From positions 133,869 to 197,868 of the forward strand of contig JACRFK010000004.1 of assembly GCA_016217925.1 (NCBI GenBank): a stretch of DNA of 64,000 nucleotides, given 5' to 3'. A model generated the notes under the pieces. That model was not told the origin of the DNA, did not search any database, and saw only the letters and a list, made by a program, of their open reading frames with translations. Shown here one piece after another: positions 4,316 to 62,256 of the stretch. Position numbers and translations under genes: made by a program. Positions within the stretch are counted from its first letter, which is position 1. The number at the start of each line of letters is the position of its first letter. This DNA is from Candidatus Kaiserbacteria bacterium. Its GTDB lineage: Bacteria; Patescibacteriota; Minisyncoccia; Phycocordibacterales; UBA2100.

Positions 4316-5569
4316 ATGAGACGGGTAGAGCGTATACTGGGAATTATGGAACCGCTCGCGTCAAAGATACGACCGAAAACGCTCGACGAGTTCGTCGGTC
4401 AGGAGCACTTGACGGGCGCGGGCAAGCCTCTGCGCGTGGCCATCGGGAAGAAAGAGCTTTTCTCATTTATTTTGTGGGGGCCGCCGGGGAGCGGCAAGAC
4501 GACACTCGCGCGCATCTACGCAAATGCGGTCGGCGCGGATTTCTATGAGCTCTCAGCGGTCGATTCGGGCAAAGAAGATATAAAAAAAGTGGTCCGCCTT
4601 CGCCAAGGCTTCGGCGGACAAGTCGGCTTGCCTCTAAAAGAAAAACCGCGCGTGCTGTTTGTCGACGAGATACATCGCTTCAACAAAGCTCAACAAGATT
4701 TCTTACTTCCCTTCGTCGAGCGCGGCGACATCACGCTCATCGGTGCGACCACGGAGAATCCCAGCTTCGAGATTATTTCGCCGCTGCTTTCCCGTTGCCG
4801 CGTCTTCGTATTGAACGAGCACTCAGAAGGAGAAATGAGGTTGATTATTGACCGTGCATATGCGGCGGTACAGAAAAACGCCCGCCCCGTCAGAGATAAG
4901 AACGCAAAGCGTTCTGGCGACGCAAGTCGCATCTCTAACGGGGCAAGCGAGTGGCTCGTGCGGATGGCAAACGGCGATGCCCGCCAAGCGATAACCACAC
5001 TCGAAACGACGCAGGCGCTCTATGGAAAGATTTCACTTGAGAATCTCAAAGAAGCCATTCAATCAAAACATCTTCGCTACGACAAAAAGGGCGAAGAGCA
5101 CTACAACACCATATCCGCGTTCATTAAGAGCATGCGCGCTTCACAGCCGGATGCTGCGCTCTACTACCTCGCGCGCATGGTGGATGCGGGCGAAGACCCC
5201 AAATTCATTGCGCGGCGCATGGTGATATTCGCAAGCGAAGATATCGGGCTCGCACAACCGACCGCGCTGGTCGTCGCCAATGCGGTGTTTGAGGCAGTCA
5301 ACAAAATAGGATATCCCGAGGCGACGATAAACCTTGCGCACGGCGTCGCATACCTCGCCCAGTGCAAAAAAGACCGCCGCTCATACGATGCGGTCTTTGA
5401 AGCGCTCGATGATGTAAAAAGATTCGGCAATCTCCCCATCCCGCTTCACATCCGCAACGCACCGACGAAGCTCATGAAAGAATTGAAGTATGGAAAAGGC
5501 TACAAGCAATACGACAAAGAATCCTATCTGCCGGAAAAACTAAAAAAGAAAAAGTATTTGAAAGGTTGA
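4316..5569 (+). CDS. rarA: replication-associated recombination protein A (AAA+ ATPase RarA/MgsA)
   Basis: Walker A GPPGSGKTTLA, FVDEIHRFNK, sensor motifs; a second in-frame ATG at 4346 is also a possible start. Confidence 0.85.
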   Translation: MRRVERILGIMEPLASKIRPKTLDEFVGQEHLTGAGKPLRVAIGKKELFSFILWGPPGSGKTTLARIYANAVGADFYELSAVDSGKEDIKKVVRLRQGFGGQVGLPLKEKPRVLFVDEIHRFNKAQQDFLLPFVERGDITLIGATTENPSFEIISPLLSRCRVFVLNEHSEGEMRLIIDRAYAAVQKNARPVRDKNAKRSGDASRISNGASEWLVRMANGDARQAITTLETTQALYGKISLENLKEAIQSKHLRYDKKGEEHYNTISAFIKSMRASQPDAALYYLARMVDAGEDPKFIARRMVIFASEDIGLAQPTALVVANAVFEAVNKIGYPEATINLAHGVAYLAQCKKDRRSYDAVFEALDDVKRFGNLPIPLHIRNAPTKLMKELKYGKGYKQYDKESYLPEKLKKKKYLKG

Positions 5570-5880: not shown

Positions 5881-6807
5881 TCAATCCATCAGGGGCTTTT
5901 TCACGTCCACGTTGGTCGTCTGATACACCCAGTTTATCCAGTTGGAATAGAAGACCTGGCCGTTCGCCCCCCAATTTTTGAGCGGCGTTTTCCGGGGGTC
6001 ATCGCCCGGGAAGTAATTCTTCGGAAAGTCTATCGGCAGGCCTAGCGATTTGTCCCTGAGATATTCGCCTGCTATATCATCGCGATCATATTCAGGATGT
6101 CCTTGTATGTAGATTTCTCGCCCTTTTCGTCCGGAAATCAAGTGCAATCCTGCGTCTTTGCTCTTAATGAGAATCTCGAAGCCGCGGAGGCCCAACAGAT
6201 CTTCTTCCCTGATTCCCCGTTGTCGCGCGTGGGGTACTAATATCTCGTCGTCCATTCCTTCTACGAACGGCGAACCCGAAGCGTGGTTGACCTGATGCCT
6301 GAAGACGCCGAACTTTTTCCTCTTATATGCATGTGGGCGGATGCCGTGACGGTGATACAGCATGGCGTGGGCGGCCCAGCAGCAGTAGACGGTCGATGTC
6401 ACTTGCTCGCGTGCCCAGTCGAAAAGGTCGGTGAGTTCTTTCCAAAAGAAGATTTCCTCGAATACGTGGTGCTCGAGATTTCCTCCGGTGACTATGAGTC
6501 CATCGAGGCCGCTCTTTTTTACGTCACGTAGCGACTTATAGAATGCATCGAAGTGGTCCTGTTTGGACGCCGATTTATGTTCATCGAAACGAATGAACGT
6601 CGGTTTTATCTGAAGAGGTGTATTTGCAAGGGGACGTAAGAACTGCACCTCTGTCCGCTCGAGGGTGGCGCTAGGCATGAGATTCAAGATCCCGATTTCC
6701 AGCGGACGAATGTCTTGCTTCTCTGCGCGCTCGGTAGATATCTCGGCCACCTGCTCGCGCTTGAGGTATGCGAATGCCGGGAGTTTCTTGTTGATGATGA
6801 GTGCCAT
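5881..6807 (-). CDS. metA: homoserine O-acyltransferase (MetA/HTS family)
   Basis: LPAFAYLKREQV...IRPLEIGILNLMP...GLIVTGG aligns with the MetA N-terminus; start refined to MALIINKK. Confidence 0.8.
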   Translation of the reverse strand: MALIINKKLPAFAYLKREQVAEISTERAEKQDIRPLEIGILNLMPSATLERTEVQFLRPLANTPLQIKPTFIRFDEHKSASKQDHFDAFYKSLRDVKKSGLDGLIVTGGNLEHHVFEEIFFWKELTDLFDWAREQVTSTVYCCWAAHAMLYHRHGIRPHAYKRKKFGVFRHQVNHASGSPFVEGMDDEILVPHARQRGIREEDLLGLRGFEILIKSKDAGLHLISGRKGREIYIQGHPEYDRDDIAGEYLRDKSLGLPIDFPKNYFPGDDPRKTPLKNWGANGQVFYSNWINWVYQTTNVDVKKPLMD

Positions 6808-7294: not shown

Positions 7295-7321
7295 GTGCGC
7301 CCTCACGGGGGCGCATTTTGA
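7295..7321 (+). terminator. rho-independent terminator
   Basis: TGCGCCCtcacGGGGCGCA followed by TTTTG. Confidence 0.55.
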
Positions 7322-7331
7322 TTCGGTGCAT

Positions 7332-7415
7332 ATGTTGCACAACGCAGATTATCCAACACAAGGTGTCGGATAATCTCAAAATATTGTGCAACGTAAATAC
7401 GTCGCACAATATTTT
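7332..7415. promoter_or_regulatory. cluster of TTGTGCAAC motifs plus a 13-bp inverted repeat upstream of the xer gene (candidate operator or dif-like site)
   Basis: GTTGCACAA 7334-7342 (rev), TTGTGCAAC 7384-7392, TCGCACAAT 7402-7410 (rev); inverted repeat GATTATCCAACAC-aagg-TGTCGGATAATC 7347-7375. Confidence 0.35.
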
Positions 7416-7431
7416 CTGATACAATTCAGTG

Positions 7432-7512
7432 ATGGCGGCAGATTTGAAGGGGCTTAAGACGCAATTTCTCCCCGCCGGAGGCGGGTCCTCCTCCGGAGGA
7501 GAATACTTATGA
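7432..7512 (+). CDS. upstream ORF (26 aa) mimicking the Xer N-terminus; its TGA stop overlaps the xer ATG (ATGA)
   Basis: [26 protein letters not shown]; residues [10 protein letters not shown] match Xer residues 3-12 (9/10) with 8 of 10 codons synonymously different. Confidence 0.4.
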
Positions 7513-9686
7513 AAGACTTAAAGGGTTTGAAAACCGAGTTTCTGGAGTATATAGAAATTGAAAAAGGGCGGAGCGTGAAGACGGTCGAGAATTATGACCG
7601 CTATCTCATGCGGTTCCTCAATTTTGCAAAGGTGAAGTCCCCTGCCCAGATAACCGAGCAGATGGTGCGTGAATTCCGTATCACACTCAATCGTTCCGCA
7701 GGGGTTACAGGCACGATGAAGAAGAATACACAAAATTATCACCTCATCGCGCTGCGCGCGTTCCTCAAGTTCCTCCGCAAGCGTGATATCGAATCGCTCA
7801 ATCCCGAGCGTATCGAACTTGCCAAGGTCGGTGGACGCGATTTGGATCTCATTACCGCCGATGAGCTCAACAGGATCATGCGTGCGCCCACGGGTGACGA
7901 GCTAGGGGGTCTGCGCGACCGCGCGATCCTCGAACTTTTGTTTTCTACCGGTTTGCGCGTCTCGGAACTCTGCAATTTGAATCAGGATATTGACCTCTCT
8001 CGCGATGAGTTCTCGGTGCGCGGCAAAGGAGAAAAGGTGCGCGTGGTATTTCTCTCGGCGTCCGCGAAAAAAGCGGTGGCCGAATATTTGAAAAAGCGCG
8101 GTGATATGAGCAAGGCGTTGTTCGTCAGTTACGGCAAAGGCGGCACGAGCAAGGGAAAAGATTTACCGCGCATCACTCCGCGCTCCGTCGAGCGATTGGT
8201 AAAACAGTACGCGATAAAAGCGGGCATCACGCGCAAAGTGACGCCGCATGTCATTCGTCACTGTCTCCACGCGGAAACGCGAATAATGGGAAACCCTTCG
8301 CTCACAACGGCGAAGGAGTTGTTCGCATCCGAAAAGCAAAAGAAGGTCCTTGGATTTGATTGGAAAAACAATCGTCTCATGCGGGCCTCGATTAAGAGAC
8401 GTGAAACACATTCCACACAACGCCTGATTTCTTTATGGGCGGACGGCCGGGAAATTTGCTGCACCCCGTACCACAGCTTTTTCACCCCGAGCGTTAACGG
8501 TATTGTGCCGATACAAGCACAAGACCTGAAAGTTGGGGATTATGTAGCGGGAGTTCGCAGTGTTCAATGGTCCCAGGGAAGTAGACCCGAAAGCGAATCC
8601 ACGGACTTTTGGAGATTGCTTGGATATATTCTTGGTGATGGAACGCTTAGTGAGGCACGGCGAGGTATTATCATAAATGATAAAGAACGTCGCCACATTG
8701 ACCTATACAACGAAATTGTTTTTCGTGTGACGGGCAGGTGCGGAACCGTCACTAAATTGTCAGGCGGCAATGGGTACGCGCTCAATATCTACAATGTTGG
8801 TTTTCTGAAAAAGGTACGAGCTCTTGGAATTACACAGCGTTCAAAAGAACGGCGTGTCCCCGCGGGCCTGTTTCAGGAGTCCGAGACCGCGATCCGAGCC
8901 TTTCTTGCAGGCTATTACGATGCCGAAGGAAATAACGGCAGGATTAAGATGTTCTCCGCAAGTAAGGAACTTCTGAAAGACATACAAATGTTGCTGCTCC
9001 GGTTGTCTATCGAGAGCATACTGCTCCGCCGAGAGCGGCGAGTGAAACTTCCCCAAGGTCGGGTCATTGACCACGTCATATACATACTGCATGTGACGTA
9101 TCCACCAAGCGAGAATCGCTTTGTGGAACTCATACCAACATTCAAACAACGCATACGACCGAAAAAAGAGTGGCAGCGACTCGATATTGCATTACCTACG
9201 CAACCACTGATTCGAGGACTCTACCCCCTTTTGCTTGCCAAGAGGGGTTTCATCCATTGGCTCGGTAACCGTTATGGCATACGGTACCTGAAACGTTATA
9301 CAAGAATATGTACAACACCGCTGCTGCTCTCTGTGTTTCTTAAGGCCTGCAAAGAAAAAAGAATTCGAAATCCATTTATCAAGCAACTCGAGGTTCTCAA
9401 CCGACTCGATTCGATTCGATGGCTCCGAGTGAAGAAGCTGGAGATGGTCGGCGGTGTATCGAAAGTTTACGATTTCACGATAGAACCAACGCACAATTTC
9501 ATCACAGATGGTTTTATCTCGCACAACTCATTCGCGACTGACCTACTCGAAAATGGTGCCGATCTGCGTAGCGTGCAAGCGCTCCTCGGCCACGCCAACA
9601 TCGCAACGACCCAAGTCTACACGCACGTGACCGACAAACACCTCCGCGAAGTCCATCAGGCATTTCACGGCAAACGCCGCAAATAA
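7509..9686 (+). CDS. XerC/XerD-family tyrosine recombinase containing an in-frame intein
   Basis: N-terminal SAM-like domain; ...TPHVIRH then a 422-aa insertion then [34 protein letters not shown] (R-H box and catalytic Tyr region). Confidence 0.85.
8262..9527 (+). mobile_element. intein with LAGLIDADG homing-endonuclease domain inside the xer gene
   Basis: starts with Cys right after HVIRH; ends with His-Asn before Ser+1 (SFAT); block B TPYH; LAGLIDADG motifs [11 protein letters not shown] and [11 protein letters not shown]; C-terminal blocks [12 protein letters not shown]...ISHN. Confidence 0.8.
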
Positions 9687-49157: not shown

Positions 49158-50861
49158 ATGCATGACCTTGTTGTAAGACTTCTTGCAAAACGGGGGATTA
49201 CCGAAGCCGCTGCGGTCGCGGCGTTTTTGAATCCGGATTATGAGCTGCACACGCACTCGCCTTTTTTGTTACGGGGAATGGATGTTGCCGTCGCCCGCGT
49301 GTTTGACGCGATGGAGAAAAACGAACGGGTTGCGGTGTATGCAGACTTTGATTGCGACGGGATTCCCGGTGCGGCCCTCCTTTCAGACCTTTTCAACAAA
49401 ATAGAGTACAAGAACTTCGAAGTGTATCTGCCACATCGCGACAGGGAAGGATACGGGTTTCATACGGAAGCAATTGAAACGCTTGCGGGGCAGGGAGTAA
49501 AACTCATCATCACCGTCGACGTCGGCACGACCGCATTTGACGCGGTCGCGTTCGCCAAGGAAAAAGGAGTTGATGTCATTGTGACCGACCACCACGAGCC
49601 CATTAGAGAGCCTTCGGCCTCTAACGGGCCAGGAATACCCGGGGCACTACCGGGTGCAGTTGCGATGCTTAATCCAAAACTGGCACCGTACCCCTTTCCG
49701 CATTTGTGTGGCGCGGCGGTCGCCTTCAAGCTCGCACAAGCAATTCTTGCGGAGGGCCACAAGAGGGAATTGAAACAATTCGAAGCAATTCCCCAGGGCT
49801 GGGAAAAATGGCTCCTCGATATGGTCGCGATCGCGACTGTTGCAGATATGGTCCCGCTCGTCGGAGAAAATCGTGCACTCACACACTGGGGCTTGCAAGT
49901 CTTGCGCAAATCACCGCGGCCGGGGATACAAGCGCTTTGTGCAAAATTGCGATTACGTCAGTCAGAACTTTCCGAAAGTGATATCGGCTTCTCTATCGCT
50001 CCGCGCGTGAACGCCGCATCCCGGATGGATGAGCCCGACTTGGCACTACAGCTTCTCATCACGCGCGACGTTGCCGAAGCCGAGCATCTGGCGGCGCAAC
50101 TTGAAAAATTGAATACACGCAGGAAAAGCGTGGTCGCAAGTTTGGTAAAACAGGCGCGCACACATGTGAAAGAGCGGTACAAAGATGATGAACGTGTCGT
50201 CGTCGTGGGCAATCCCGAATGGAAACCGGCGCTCCTCGGCCTTGCCGCCAACTCCGTCATGTCGGACAGAGGCGGCGTCGTGTGCATGTGGGGACGCGAT
50301 GTGAACGGAAAATTGAAAGGCTCGTGCCGCTCGGACGGCGACGTTTCGGTTCTCGAACTTTTTGAGAATGCCGGAGATGTGTTCGAGGAATACGGAGGAC
50401 ATGCTGCATCCTGTGGCTTCACCGTTTCACACGAGCGCGTGCATCAATTGGGGGAGGCGCTTGCGCGTGCCGCAGAAAAATTGCCGCCTCGCGTAGATGG
50501 AGTCGCACTCGAACACGACGTGTCCGTCACCCTTTCCGATATTTCGTCGGCGTTCTTTAAAGAGGTTTCGAAGCTTGCCCCATTCGGCATCGGCAATCCG
50601 AAACCCATCTTTCTTTTGAACAACACGACCATCGTCGGGGTGAAACGTTTCGGCAAGGAAAATAATCACGTAGAGGTTATGCTCGAATGCCGCGCGAGCG
50701 GGAACTCCGCTCGCGCGTTCGAATTTTTCAAATCACCCGGCGATTTTTCTCTTGAGCCAGCTCCGGGACAATTTGCGAGCCTCCTTGCGACCATCGAGCG
50801 CGACTCCTACCGCGGTGGGCTTGCGCTCAGGATTGTTGATATCGTTCCCGTGTCGGTATAA
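49158..50861 (+). CDS. recJ: single-stranded-DNA-specific exonuclease RecJ
   Basis: DHH motifs VYADFDCDG and VIVTDHH; DHHA1 domain; 567 aa. Confidence 0.85.
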   Translation: MHDLVVRLLAKRGITEAAAVAAFLNPDYELHTHSPFLLRGMDVAVARVFDAMEKNERVAVYADFDCDGIPGAALLSDLFNKIEYKNFEVYLPHRDREGYGFHTEAIETLAGQGVKLIITVDVGTTAFDAVAFAKEKGVDVIVTDHHEPIREPSASNGPGIPGALPGAVAMLNPKLAPYPFPHLCGAAVAFKLAQAILAEGHKRELKQFEAIPQGWEKWLLDMVAIATVADMVPLVGENRALTHWGLQVLRKSPRPGIQALCAKLRLRQSELSESDIGFSIAPRVNAASRMDEPDLALQLLITRDVAEAEHLAAQLEKLNTRRKSVVASLVKQARTHVKERYKDDERVVVVGNPEWKPALLGLAANSVMSDRGGVVCMWGRDVNGKLKGSCRSDGDVSVLELFENAGDVFEEYGGHAASCGFTVSHERVHQLGEALARAAEKLPPRVDGVALEHDVSVTLSDISSAFFKEVSKLAPFGIGNPKPIFLLNNTTIVGVKRFGKENNHVEVMLECRASGNSARAFEFFKSPGDFSLEPAPGQFASLLATIERDSYRGGLALRIVDIVPVSV

Positions 50862-50870
50862 TGCGGACTC

Positions 50871-51281
50871 ATGGCTAAACAAGTCGTTATCTACACTGAT
50901 GGAGGTGCCCGAAATAATCCGGGGCCCGCGGGTGCCGGCGTCGTCATCATTGATGAAAAGAAGAAAGTCACACTGAAAAAATATCTCGGAAGTCAGACCA
51001 ATAATTGGGCAGAGTACGAGGCCGTAGTACTCGCGCTTTCAGAGGCGAAGAGGCTCGGGCTCGGCGGGCGCCCTCTAGAAGTGCGTATGGATAGCAAGCT
51101 CGTCGTTGAGCAAATTCTCGGCAATTGGAAAATAAAAGAACCGACGCTCAAGCCACAGGCTGCGAAAGTTCGCGCGCTGCTCGCGGCAGATTTTCCAAAA
51201 TATCATTTCGTACACATTCCGCGCGAGGAAAACGCCGAGGCGGATGCGCTCGTCAATGAGGTGCTAGATTCATCCCGTTAG
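50871..51281 (+). CDS. rnhA: ribonuclease HI
   Basis: VVIYTDGGARNNPGPAG, TNNWAEYEAV, C-terminal EENAEADALVN. Confidence 0.85.
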   Translation: MAKQVVIYTDGGARNNPGPAGAGVVIIDEKKKVTLKKYLGSQTNNWAEYEAVVLALSEAKRLGLGGRPLEVRMDSKLVVEQILGNWKIKEPTLKPQAAKVRALLAADFPKYHFVHIPREENAEADALVNEVLDSSR

Positions 51282-51282
51282 A

Positions 51283-51345
51283 AATAGCGCGCCCCAAAGG
51301 CCCGTCGGGCGTGCAAGCACGGGCGCGATTTCTAACGGGACGGGG
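51283..51345 (+). terminator. long GC-rich hairpin after rnhA (terminator-like)
   Basis: GAAATAGCGCGCCC ... GGGCGCGATTTC outer stem enclosing inner hairpins. Confidence 0.4.
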
Positions 51346-59436: not shown

Positions 59437-59946
59437 ATGCATGTTACGCGTGAGGATGCGCAGATTCTCGCCGGCAAACTGAAAGAGGCAAGTCCTCATA
59501 TTCACCATATTGAATTGTTTGGAAGCGTGCTGCGGAATGGTTTGGGGAATGATGCCGACCTTGTTCTCATCGTCGACGAAGGCATTGCACGACGGTGGTG
59601 GAATGAGATGGGGGACGAGCTGCGTGTCCGTATGGGTACGCGCTGGCTTCCTCTCAGGCGATTCATAAAAACGTACCTCACGTGGCTCGACACGATGAGC
59701 ATTCGGGGGAGGAAACATCGCCGCATCGCACGCGCGTCGGAATTACTCGGCGTCAACATCGAGAAATTGGTCACTGAGTACAAGCCCGGCGCGATGGTCG
59801 ATATCTTCCTTTTCCCTGAAACGTGGCGTACCGAAAAAACACCAAATATGTCGGTTCTATGCTCGCTTGCCGGCGTCATCCGGGACCACAAGGAAACTCG
59901 GCTTTTTTTGGAACGTACCGCGCACAGTGCTATTCGGCTCAATTAA
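59437..59946 (+). CDS. minimal nucleotidyltransferase-domain protein inserted between rpsG and fusA
   Basis: ELFGSVLRNGLGNDADLVLIVD is the GS..D.D nucleotidyltransferase signature; 169 aa. Confidence 0.55.
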   Translation: MHVTREDAQILAGKLKEASPHIHHIELFGSVLRNGLGNDADLVLIVDEGIARRWWNEMGDELRVRMGTRWLPLRRFIKTYLTWLDTMSIRGRKHRRIARASELLGVNIEKLVTEYKPGAMVDIFLFPETWRTEKTPNMSVLCSLAGVIRDHKETRLFLERTAHSAIRLN

Positions 59947-60013
59947 TCTTGCATTTCTTCGAATTTCCGTTACATTACTGAGACGCGCACAGCGCGTTTT
60001 TGTTTAAATCACT

Positions 60014-60118
60014 ATGGCACGGGATTACCCACTCGAAAAAGTCCGCAACCCCGCAGGAAAGCGCTATGCACTTCCGACGGGGCATGCTTCGGTAGCTAAC
60101 TTCGCATTAAATATATGA
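60014..60118 (+). CDS. upstream ORF (34 aa) mimicking the EF-G N-terminus; its TGA overlaps the fusA ATG (ATGA)
   Basis: [34 protein letters not shown]; 11 of its first 12 residues are identical to EF-G, with all nine compared codons synonymously different. Confidence 0.4.
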
Positions 60119-62256
60119 GTAGAGATTACCCGTTAGAGAAGGTGAGAAATTTTGGGATAGTAGCGCACGTGGATGCTGGCAAGACGACCACATCCGAGCG
60201 TATTTTGTATTACACGGGCGAGAGCCACAAAATCGGCGAAGTACACGAGGGCAACACGGTGACCGACTGGATGGAACAGGAGCGCGAGCGCGGCATCACC
60301 ATCACCGCCGCCGCCATTACTTGTTTCTGGAATCCTTCGTACATGGGCACCGACCTCTCGGCGAAAGTGCGCTTCAACATTATTGATACCCCCGGACACA
60401 TCGACTTCACTTCCGAAGTGAAGCGTTCCATGCGTGTGCTCGATGGCGCGGTCGTCGTCTTCGACGGCGTCGCCGGTGTCGAGCCGCAATCGGAGACCAA
60501 TTGGCGCTATGCCGAAGAAGCCAACGTGCCGCGCATCTGCTACATCAACAAACTCGACCGCACGGGCGCGTCATTCGAAAAGTCATACGCCTCTATTCTC
60601 GACCGCCTTTCCACGAAAGCCGTGCGATTCCAAATCCCCATCGGACTCGAAGAAAAATTCGAGGGCATCATTGATTTGCTTTCCATGAAGGCGTATCACT
60701 TCGAAGGCGAAATGGGAAAGAACGTCGTCGCCGGAGACATCCCCGCAAACATGATGGACGAGGCCAAGAAATATCGTCACGAACTCGTCGAACGCATCGT
60801 TGAAAATGACGATGCGGTCATGGCGGACTTCTTGGACGGCAAAGAAATTCCGCTCGACGTCCTGAAGTCGACGCTCCGCAAGGGCGTTATCGCGAATAAG
60901 ATTTTTCCCGTACTCACGGGCAGCTCTCTCAAGAACAAAGGCGTGCAGCTCGTCCTCGACGCGGTTGTCGATTATCTCCCGTCACCGAAAGACATGCCGG
61001 AATCAAAAGGAGTCAACACAGATACAGGCGCGGAGGAAACGCGTCCCGCATCCGATGAAGCACCATTTGCTGCGCTCGTTTTCAAAATTCAGACAGACCC
61101 GTTCGTCGGACAGCTCTCGTTCTTCCGCGTCTATTCGGGTACCTTTACCGCGGGCGACACAGTCTACAATTCCGCCAACAATAAGAAAGAGCGCGTCGGA
61201 CGCATCGTGCGCTTGCAGGCGGATAAGCGCGAGGACGTGAAAGAGGTCTACGCAGGCGAAATCGCCGCCGCGGTCGGCATGAAAGAAGTGAAAATCGGAC
61301 ACACACTCTGTGATGTAGCGCACCCCATCGCGCTCGAATCCATCGTCTTCCCGGAGCCCGTCGTCTCGATGCGCATTGAGCCCAACACAAAAGCCGACCA
61401 GGAAAAAATGGGTATGGCGCTTTCAAAGCTTTCTGACGAAGACCCGACCTTCCGCATCAAGTCGGACCCCGAGACGATGGAAACTATCGTATCGGGAATG
61501 GGTGAGCTCCACTTGGAAATTATCGTCGACCGCATGAAGCGCGAATTCGGCGTGCAGGCGACGACCGGCAAGCCGCAAGTCGCATACCGCGAGACCATTC
61601 AGGGTACAGCGGATGTTGAATACAAACACATCAAGCAGACGGGCGGTCGCGGTCAGTATGGCCATGTGAAAATCCGCGTGAAGCCGCTTGAGCCGGTAGA
61701 AGAAGGCAAGAAGGTCAAGAACAATGTAGAGCGCGACGACCATTTCGAGTTCATCAACAACATCAAAGGAGGCGTCATCCCGCAGGAATACATCCAGCCG
61801 GTGAAGAAGGGTCTCATCGAGGCGATGGAGCGCGGCATTCAAGCAGGATTCCCCGTTGTCGATATTTCCGTCGAGCTCTACGACGGCTCGTACCACGATG
61901 TGGACTCATCCGAAATTGCGTTCAAGCTCGCCGCCATCAACGCAATGCAGGAGGCGATGCAGAAGGCGAAGCCCGTCATCCTCGAACCGATAATGAAATT
62001 GGAGGTCGTCGTCCCGGAGAAATTCATGGGCGACGTGACGGGTATGATAAACAGCAAACGTGGCGCCATCGAGGCGATGGGCGAGCGCGGTCAGGCGCGC
62101 GTCATCACCGCGAAAGTTCCGCTTTCAGAGCTTTTCGGCTTTACCACTCAGCTCCGAAGTTTGACGGAGGGAAGAGGAGTACCGAACTTGGAGTTCTCGC
62201 ACTACGCAGTCGTACCGAAGACCGCAGCAGACGCTGTCATCGCAAGCAGGAAGTAA
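60115..62256 (+). CDS. fusA: translation elongation factor G
   Basis: G domain [21 protein letters not shown]; domains II-V; 713 aa. Confidence 0.95.

Follow-up and report, generated by a model that had tools for sequence, protein, structure and literature searches.

A hairpin module between two differently coded copies of the fusA start in a Kaiserbacteria genome, with related units at other gene ends in Patescibacteria

In the window analysed here, a 64-kb stretch of a Candidatus Kaiserbacteria genome, the elongation factor G (EF-G) gene fusA is preceded by a 34-codon upstream open reading frame (uORF) that begins with a second copy of the EF-G N-terminus, runs through a hairpin, and ends in an ATGA overlap with the start of fusA. 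We think it probable that this uORF is the original 5' end of fusA, displaced by a hairpin module with a re-coded replacement start, and that it belongs to a family of such units in Patescibacteria. The units share one architecture and a conserved hairpin, occur at both ends of genes with the hairpin also found inside genes, are spread patchily, contain gene-end copies that diverge synonymously, and at 5' ends place the stop of the uORF at the working start. Sequence comparison further suggests that the module may move horizontally together with a co-converted flank, in which case the inner, working copy would be the incoming one. The whole looks like a small selfish module that enters essential genes without breaking their function.

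In the course of events that we propose, a compact module made up of a hairpin of about 37 nucleotides (nt) with the foot CCCC...ACGGGG, roughly 30 nt of linker and a second set of codons 1-12 would have been inserted after native codon 12, and the second ATG would now serve as the start of EF-G. Ribosomes loading at the native region would translate the 12 relic codons, read through the one open frame of the hairpin and stop at the ATGA, where they would either reinitiate or at least not run over the real start. More generally, the palindromic family would insert in frame inside genes, and a module 30-45 nt inside a gene end (5' or 3', in either orientation) would be accompanied by a replacement end copy, with the native end outside as a relic.

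Doubled starts of fusA and xer

The uORF upstream of fusA, with its EF-G-like beginning and ATGA overlap, had been noticed in an original prediction made from the DNA letters alone, and it is real: 11 of its first 12 residues are the same as those of EF-G. The same prediction held that every compared codon differs synonymously, which was an overstatement, as codons 1-12 of the outer and inner copies comprise three identical codons (ATG, GAT, TAC), eight synonymous differences and one non-synonymous difference (22/36 nt identical). The outer copy uses the codons preferred by the genome (CGC, CTC, GTC, AAC), and the AT-rich codons of the working start extend to about position 60162 (TTT GGG ATA GTA). 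A diversity-generating retroelement was ruled out by inspection of the codon table, because the differences between the copies are not adenine-specific.

The leader identifies the outer copy as the one that stands in the native position. In the closest relative, L001 (EF-G 89% identical), which has no doubled fusA start, the leader TTTCC-GTTACATTACTGA, followed by a hairpin and T-run, lies directly 5' of fusA. This conserved leader adjoins the outer copy in the carriers L084-L086 and L088, and in L089 the outer copy comes after rpsG, with GAGGAG. Over codons 3-12, the outer copy of the window agrees with L001 at 25/30 nt and the inner copy at 20/30; all four six-fold codons within fusA codons 1-12 have changed codon family relative to L001, compared with 12/104 elsewhere in the gene. 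Between genomes, outer copies are alike among themselves, and so are the working copies (GAG AAG GTR AGR AAT). The native leader in the window contains weak -35/-10-like hexamers (TTGCAT, 59949-59954; TACATT, 59971-59976) and the hairpin with T-run ACGCGC ACA GCGCGT TTTT (59983-60001), after which an AU-rich stretch leads to the outer ATG. Judging from the hexamers, the leader may act as a promoter; a consensus promoter scan called none in it.

The gene xer has a unit with the same layout, as the original prediction had also stated, with 9/10 residues and 20/30 nt common to its two copies and the ATGA overlap at 7509. Here the assignment of the copies is clearer. Over 10 codons, the outer copy agrees with the non-carrier L104 at 28/30 nt and the inner copy at 21/30, and L104 is collinear with the xer leader plus outer copy of the window. 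Close Xer relatives (83-92% identical) almost all start with MA[ATS]DLKxLKTQFLEY, which is the outer copy of the window, and the working xer start is a minority type common to P0032 and P0102. From this start type, both were predicted to carry the unit, and both do. The layout recurs in three other assemblies: L101 and L102 have the identical 38-nt spacer and the ATGA overlap, and L103 keeps both hairpins through compensatory changes (CCGGCC CAA GGCCGG; TCCGCC TCG GGCGGA). The xer spacer folds with -19.3 kcal/mol (z = -2.1). Sequestration of a Shine-Dalgarno (SD) sequence was considered as the logic of the xer hairpins and is weakened, as the genome does not use SD motifs and the change from GGAGGA to GGCGGA in L103 keeps the pairing. 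In the xer leader (7320-7420) there are also two inverted repeats, for example 7380-7395 with 7398-7413 (94% complementary), which are kept in the non-carrier L104 and, from their sequence, may be operator or promoter elements.

The spacers of the 5' units are 37-75 nt long, hold neither an endonuclease nor an integrase ORF, and fall into three classes at fusA. In class A, to which the window belongs, the spacer comes after codon 12 and consists of CCC, the stem-loop and then ACGGGGCATGCTTCGG; in class B it comes after codon 14 plus 1 nt and has the form CCCCGGTA, stem-loop, GCTACGGGGC; class C has a palindrome without mismatches (CCTGCCTGCC/GGCAGGCAGG). Of the class-A units, 5/6 have an identical ACGGGGCATGCTTCGG block and L083 differs by one base; the lineages with the identical block have EF-G that is only about 76-78% identical. 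For classes A and B, RNAalifold gave a 12-pair hairpin in which 8/9 variable pairs are compensatory; pairing extends to 91.6% of the hairpin cells and drops to 31-51% when the register is slid, and 0/500 shuffles reached the covariation score. None of 119 cells contains a G-U pair, and selection on the hairpin therefore leans to DNA rather than RNA, which suggests that it works at the DNA level. Rfam had no family that reached gathering thresholds anywhere in the window, nor one around the fusA unit with the limit relaxed to E<=10. The Pro-Ala-Gly continuation common to the fusA and xer uORFs, to which the original prediction had attached weight, is not kept as a peptide (relatives have PIR, PEG, PIV, TPV or PAQ); only the CCC of the hairpin foot is constant.

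The position of the uORF stop is the most regular property of the 5' units. In 12/12 distinct 5' units, the relic ORF remains open through hairpin and linker and ends between -12 and +8 nt of the working ATG, which the other frames do in 2/24 cases (Fisher p ~7e-8, a significance that is over-estimated since the units are related). An ATGA overlap is present in 5/12 distinct fusA units and in all xer units. Because the spacer lengths fall in all three classes modulo 3, the stop placement must have been maintained case by case. From this placement, the uORF and fusA may be coupled via termination-reinitiation, or relic ribosomes would at least be stopped before the real start. SD cores lie 5' of 6/47 long ORFs in the window against a background of 11%, and the organism apparently does not rely on SD-led initiation; since SD motifs occur at background frequency, their absence at fusA says little.

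Units at both gene ends and hairpins inside genes

Doubled fusA 5' ends were found in 14 further contigs (L031 and 13 metagenome contigs) from several lineages of Patescibacteria; with the three further assemblies for xer, this is what was found where the original prediction had allowed for two coincidental duplications, without other examples or conservation. Two fusA 5' ends spaced 45-75 nt apart were searched for with a degenerate pattern. It matched nothing in 100 shuffles of the window, picked up exactly the two cases already known in the local sequences, and led to the 13 additional contigs in public metagenomes of several projects. Among the 80 nearest species-representative fusA loci, a second upstream EF-G N-terminus occurs only in L031, a Lloydbacteria metagenome-assembled genome (EF-G 67% identical). 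A scan of 787 kb of related sequence for any gene with its N-terminus repeated just upstream, which widens the search for short ATGA-ending mimics that the original prediction had in mind, did yield related cases, of which fusA and xer in the window and fusA in L031 are the only convincing ones; the remaining matches are of low complexity or in spurious frames, at about the rate of the reversed-peptide control (17 vs 8). The fusA carriers are scattered over at least five lineages, each with non-carriers as its nearest relatives. One clade (the window, L085, L086, L087, L084, L081 and L092; EF-G 83-96%) comprises all three hairpin classes together with the empty L001, and its carriers have homologous linkers and working copies but different hairpins.

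A search of 866 kb with covariance model R1 of the hairpin added matches on the minus strand shortly after the stop of fusA, two in L030 and one in L008, and a weak one in L031. These 3' units mirror the layout of the 5' unit: after the gene body come the working end with its stop, the linker and the inverted hairpin, and then the last 10-15 codons once more, closed by a stop of their own. When peptides were scanned for 3' ends that are repeated, fusA in L008, L030, L031, L037 and L068 and one other gene in L087 turned up, with 0 control matches. In six cases, outer and inner 3' copies differ by 45 synonymous codon changes, including Ser AGC/TCT, and by 1 non-synonymous change. Copies past a stop codon could not keep such a synonymous-only pattern while drifting in place, so they must have diverged as working genes. 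Two loci have a more elaborate arrangement: L030 has three copies of the fusA 3' end (VPENVAKEIIETRK*) at about 6095-6370 with two hairpin units between them (period about 114 nt), the outermost copy having two amino-acid changes, as if from successive invasions; in L031, with units at 2238-2388 and 4460-4600, fusA is bracketed by inverted hairpins, and the relic ends lie outside. No 3' unit lies behind fusA in the window itself. Among the last 32 fusA codons of the window (62161-62256), six codons for Ser, Leu and Arg have changed family compared with the 89%-identical L001, a cluster that an earlier replacement of the 3' end could have left behind.

Because the same hairpin and the same duplicated, synonymously diverged ends occur beyond the fusA stop, translational coupling cannot be the unifying explanation. 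The family of coupling leader peptides suggested in the original prediction thus holds as a description of the 5' units, with their stop at the ATG in 12/12, and fails as the common cause.

Extension of the scan to 4.5 kb revealed larger versions with ordinary cargo genes between the copies. In L002, a 123-nt repeat (6037-6159 and 9260-9382), near-identical for about 96 nt and then divergent, flanks a 3.2-kb segment that encodes an 827-aa secreted protein with a peptidoglycan-binding domain; in L081, a 79-nt repeat (670-748 and 2039-2117) encloses 1.3 kb with a 353-aa ORF that has no Pfam match. Both repeats are the 3' end of the host gene, and no nuclease or recombinase domains were found in the cargo ORFs.

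An exhaustive model search of the window found three hairpins in addition to that of fusA, with the foot CCC(C)rTnAGA...TCTnAC(G)GGG (scores of the four: 51, 19, 17.5 and 13 bits). Three of the four lie in or at ORFs in the same reading frame, and a peptide of the form P-[IVA]-R/G ... S/T-N/T-G is read from the hairpin in rarA, recJ and the fusA uORF. The 22-residue rarA insert is present in 7/18 close orthologs and absent from 11/18. RarA of the window is 85-90% identical to non-carriers and 78-82% identical to most carriers, and the carriers have a distinct upstream flank (DRAYAAV-QKNA vs RRTKLKI-PKDA). The insert thus moves with its flank independently of the remainder of the gene, and this indicates transfer by recombination; the palindromic family is probably horizontally mobile, as far as these alignments tell. 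The in-frame recJ copy was observed in the gene of the window. The long hairpin at the RNase H-like gene, which overlaps the stop, is terminator-like. RarA orthologs P0122-P0216 have other indel hot spots after the N-terminal Met-Glu (MEHPKG...RDGNREPLAS), at alignment columns 135-155 and near the C-terminus (PEKSRGDHGAG), and short in-frame inserts occur in Xer relatives (GPSSAKASEGKD, PSFAKASAGKKG, KSAQGRPASGGD); these Xer inserts and the other RarA indels may belong to elements of this kind as well.

Table 1. Positions of the two doubled starts and of related hairpins in the window
Feature	Position	Strand	Basis or remark
Native fusA leader	59949..60013	+	Same leader in non-carrier L001 and in carriers L084-L086 and L088
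uORF upstream of fusA	60014..60118	+	34 codons: outer copy, hairpin and linker read through, TGA overlaps fusA ATG
Outer copy, probable displaced original fusA codons 1-12, in genome-typical codons	60014..60049	+	Codon comparison and comparison with L001
Hairpin module, class A (ACCCC GCAGGAAAGCGC UAU GCACUUCCGAC GGGGCA)	60048..60084	+	Covariance model R1, 51.1 bits
Linker TGCTTCGG (part of ACGGGGCATGCTTCGG block), then AU-rich stretch before the real start	60085..60114	+	
fusA (EF-G, 713 aa)	60115..62256	+	ORF start is the ATG at 60115
Inner copy, codons 1-12 of working fusA, with rare AT-rich choices (AGT, AGA twice, TTA)	60115..60150	+	
xer uORF	7429/7432-7512	+	ATGA overlap with xer start at 7509
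xer outer copy	7432..7470	+	N-terminus of most relatives; continuous with native leader
xer spacer with two hairpins (CCCGCC GGA GGCGGG, 7471-7485; TCCTCC TCC GGAGGA, 7486-7500), then GAATACTT	7471..7508	+	
xer, tyrosine recombinase with LAGLIDADG intein	7509..9686	+	Pfam; codons 1-12 (7509-7544) are the inner copy
Same-family hairpin, in frame in rarA, encoding RPVRDKNAKRSGDASRISNGAS	4883..4945		Model search; presence/absence in orthologs
Same-family hairpin, in frame in recJ just after the DHH motif, encoding EPIREPSASNGP	49597..49631	+	Model search
Long hairpin with the same foot, 3' end of RNase H-like gene (50871-51281)	51272..51342	+	Stop codon in 5' arm; T-run follows

Two neighbouring features had been offered as clues to a mobile element in the original prediction, and neither led further. 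The ORF between rpsG and fusA (59437-59946, 169 aa) has a GS..DxD-like motif by eye; it has no Pfam match at E<=0.01, so that the label nucleotidyltransferase is unverified, and no homolog in about 100 related loci, other carriers included. The expectation that rpsG-fusA junctions free of this ORF would be free of the uORF was contradicted by L089, where the unit follows directly after rpsG. The xer intein, inserted after ..VTPHVIRH, is missing from most relatives judging by length (nearly all close relatives have 302-305 aa), including the carriers P0032 and P0102. Because of the L089 unit, the intein-less carriers and the lack of ORF homologs, neither the upstream ORF nor the intein is linked to the units. 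The gap between rpsG and fusA is 0.4-4.4 kb in 25/93 related loci, and for this reason the junction looks like an insertion hot spot.

Evidence for and against displacement by a mobile module

Several results weigh against the displacement of a native end by an incoming module. The outer copies look protein-constrained: between the window and L101, the working xer copies have 6 synonymous and 2 non-synonymous differences, and the outer copies have 5 synonymous and 0 non-synonymous differences with 38/38 spacer positions the same, which is unexpected for a dead relic. Such constraint could be explained if invasion had been repeated and recent, if relics were renewed from empty alleles, or if the relic were really in use. 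For eleven 5' units compared with their nearest non-carriers, the two copies tie (248 vs 240 identities), and overall there is no support for a native-like outer and a foreign inner copy as a rule; this comparison cannot decide the matter, because the nearest non-carriers are too diverged at synonymous sites, and the view that the inner copy is imported thus rests on xer and, moderately, on fusA of the window. No nuclease, transposase or recombinase was found in or beside any unit. The hairpin was likewise not found on viral contigs (six 16-mer matches without the hairpin, and 0 matches to the class-B pattern), and a viral or plasmid parent element was rejected on this search. The copies in the middle of genes have no flanking duplication, so that the link between hairpin insertion and end duplication is mechanistically unexplained. 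In a genome without SD use, the real ATG could be recognised independently rather than by coupling. Finally, the double-fusA pattern demands that both copies are intact and that the upstream copy has a TAC codon; it therefore under-counts, and decayed relics are missed. For a presence/absence comparison, near-identical strains are not on record by EF-G or S7, and S12 led to one short contig that ends inside rpsG.

An unlikely alternative is a local event without horizontal transfer, in which a palindrome landed near a gene end, a local duplication followed, and the copies diverged in place under purifying selection. The untranslated outer 3' copies are difficult to reconcile with this, because they differ almost only synonymously, even at Ser AGC/TCT. 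Moreover, xer inner copies have common derived residues (K/R2, E10) across carriers that are not mutually closest, an inner fusA codon signature (AGA GAY TAT ... GAG AAG GTR AGR AAT) is common to distant hosts, and the rarA insert, together with its flank, is at odds with the remainder of the protein. Local duplication would nevertheless account for the agreement between the two copies within a unit at lineage-variable positions (in 12/12, both have K or both have R at residue 9), for the near-equal distance of both copies from the nearest non-carrier, and for L068, where the homology between the copies seems to run a few bases past the stop codon.

We also regard as rather unlikely that the units are dedicated cis-regulatory leaders, in which uORF and hairpin arose by partial tandem duplication to control translation of fusA or xer, for example by sensing elongation or translocation, with the mimicry itself under selection. 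The constant stop at the ATG, the covariation that keeps the hairpin, the purely synonymous variation of outer copies and the persistence of the ACGGGGCATGCTTCGG block across diverged EF-G lineages would all be expected of such a leader. However, the logic of a uORF fails for inverted hairpins and duplicated ends past the fusA stop, and it does not cover the in-frame hairpins in rarA and recJ, the patchy distribution or the complete lack of G-U pairs. Folding of whole units is no better than that of shuffles (z = 0.0, +0.6 and +0.8), and no alternative structures were found. A spacer derived from the gene's own leader by tandem duplication was rejected as well, as local alignments did not exceed shuffles when 12 tests were allowed for; blastn-short of the spacer against regions upstream of fusA in relatives gave no homology.

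Recoding, by which the outer copy would yield the full-length protein through translational bypass or through removal of hairpin, linker and inner copy from RNA or DNA, is very improbable. It would explain the protein-like constraint on outer copies; the stable hairpin begins directly after the would-be take-off codon, and the last outer fusA codon and its inner counterpart would be read by the same tRNA under standard wobble rules (AAC/AAT; GGC/GGT). The corresponding xer codons do not match in this way (CTC vs CTG or TTG), no stop codon follows the would-be take-off codon, and bypass needs neither an inner ATG with codons 1-11 kept as coding nor a uORF open to that ATG. Since the 3' units are the reverse complement, a single mechanism acting on RNA could not operate at both ends. 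A chimeric assembly, or the coincidence of two partial duplications, can be dismissed, even for a window taken from a metagenome-assembled genome (one of its proteins is 100% identical over 98% of its length to a protein of another Candidatus Kaiserbacteria record): about 20 independent contigs, which stem from various projects and assemblers, show the same architecture, the hairpin changes are compensatory, and shuffles gave 0 pattern matches.

Displacement by a mobile hairpin module thus stays our preferred explanation. It retains the substance of the homing-type footprint with a replacement 5' end that the original prediction had put forward, through the outer copy on its native leader, the xer start types, the patchy spread and a mitochondrial analogue; homing in the strict sense was not borne out, as no nuclease was found. 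We tentatively speculate, as one possibility that we consider less likely than not to be correct in full, that the hairpin is the recognition site of a trans-acting enzyme. The units would then be ORF-less "home-and-rescue" elements in the last 10-15 codons at either end of essential and highly conserved genes, which carry a synonymously re-coded end that would destroy or immunise the target and which spread across lineages of the candidate phyla radiation (CPR) by conversion of unoccupied alleles. In a stronger variant, the relic end would be used through reversible excision, which would explain its conservation at the protein level.

Significance and relation to known systems

If displacement is true, it provides a route for small selfish DNA into fusA and xer of minimal CPR genomes without loss of function. 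The units also give a search signature, namely duplicated gene ends with synonymous-only differences and a hairpin between them. For annotation, they make spurious small ORFs and can mislead start-codon calls; for evolution, they are a source of in-frame peptide inserts and mosaic gene ends, which bears on marker-based phylogenies. The 5' units amount to a natural experiment on termination-reinitiation in organisms without SD use. Should a dedicated enzyme recognise the hairpin, it would represent a new site-directed DNA-handling activity, and the recoded-rescue logic, if true, would be a natural miniature counterpart and precedent of synthetic recoded-rescue gene drives. Our literature searches found no paper on mobile in-frame palindromic insertions in Patescibacteria, and nothing relevant to CPR on hairpin mobile elements with fusA duplication.

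Short GC-rich imperfect palindromes are known from repetitive extragenic palindromes (REPs) with their REP-associated tyrosine transposases (RAYTs) and from IS200/IS605-type elements; REPs have a GTAG head, and elements of these groups are not known to duplicate long stretches of their target. In many units, the reverse strand, CCCC-GTAG-palindrome, recalls the GTAG head, and we take this as a lead only; unlike REP/RAYT and IS200/IS605 elements, the units show no Y1/HUH transposase gene and have a low copy number. Translational coupling is classically seen as termination-reinitiation at an overlapping stop and start (ATGA). The 5' units resemble it in that the upstream ORF ends on, or a few bases from, the downstream ATG, but this ORF is a relic of the same gene and not a separate cistron or an evolved leader. 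Integrative elements such as phage 21 and e14 in icd insert at the end of a gene, for a tRNA or a protein, and bring a substitute for that end with them. As in icd, the insert lies between direct repeats of the gene end, the gene is made whole by the end supplied, and the differences are mostly synonymous; the L002 locus, with its 123-nt repeat and 3.2-kb cargo, looks like an icd-type integrative element. The hairpin units, by contrast, have no identical core between the copies and no integrase, and the "element" is below 80 nt.

To our knowledge, an association of Rickettsia palindromic elements (RPEs) with duplicated, re-coded gene ends has not been described. RPEs are repeats resembling miniature transposable elements with inverted repeats (MITEs) that lie in frame in protein-coding genes (PMC10969869). 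They and the hairpin family have in common that short palindromes are translated in frame into a recognisable peptide, although our hairpin units measure about 35-65 nt compared with about 150 bp for RPEs, and four hairpin copies occur in 64 kb.

The closest described system appears, by analogy, to be that of the mobile endonuclease ORFs (mORFs) of mitochondria, which insert near the 3' end of a gene with a foreign replacement C-terminus and leave the native end downstream (PMC3630166). Gene hybrids of this type are described for Glomus atp6, atp9, cox2 and nad3 (PMC3630166), and one in Allomyces macrogynus atp6 is mentioned in the same source, which cites Paquin, Laforest and Lang 1994 for it. 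In these hybrids, the native copy is 91-98% identical to that of a relative and the inserted copy 64-81% (PMC3630166). The units described here are similar in that the insert lies just inside the gene end, a diverged copy becomes the working end and the native one a relic, and the copies are near-identical as protein and distant as DNA (here 25/30 vs 20/30 for fusA, and 28/30 vs 21/30 for xer). They are unlike mORF hybrids in holding only a hairpin and linker of 37-75 nt with no endonuclease ORF between the copies, in their bacterial host, and in their occurrence at 5' as well as 3' ends, where the 5' relic forms a uORF whose stop abuts the new start. The units therefore differ from the described systems in being ORF-less, tiny and bacterial, in occupying both gene ends, and in turning the 5' relic into a uORF.

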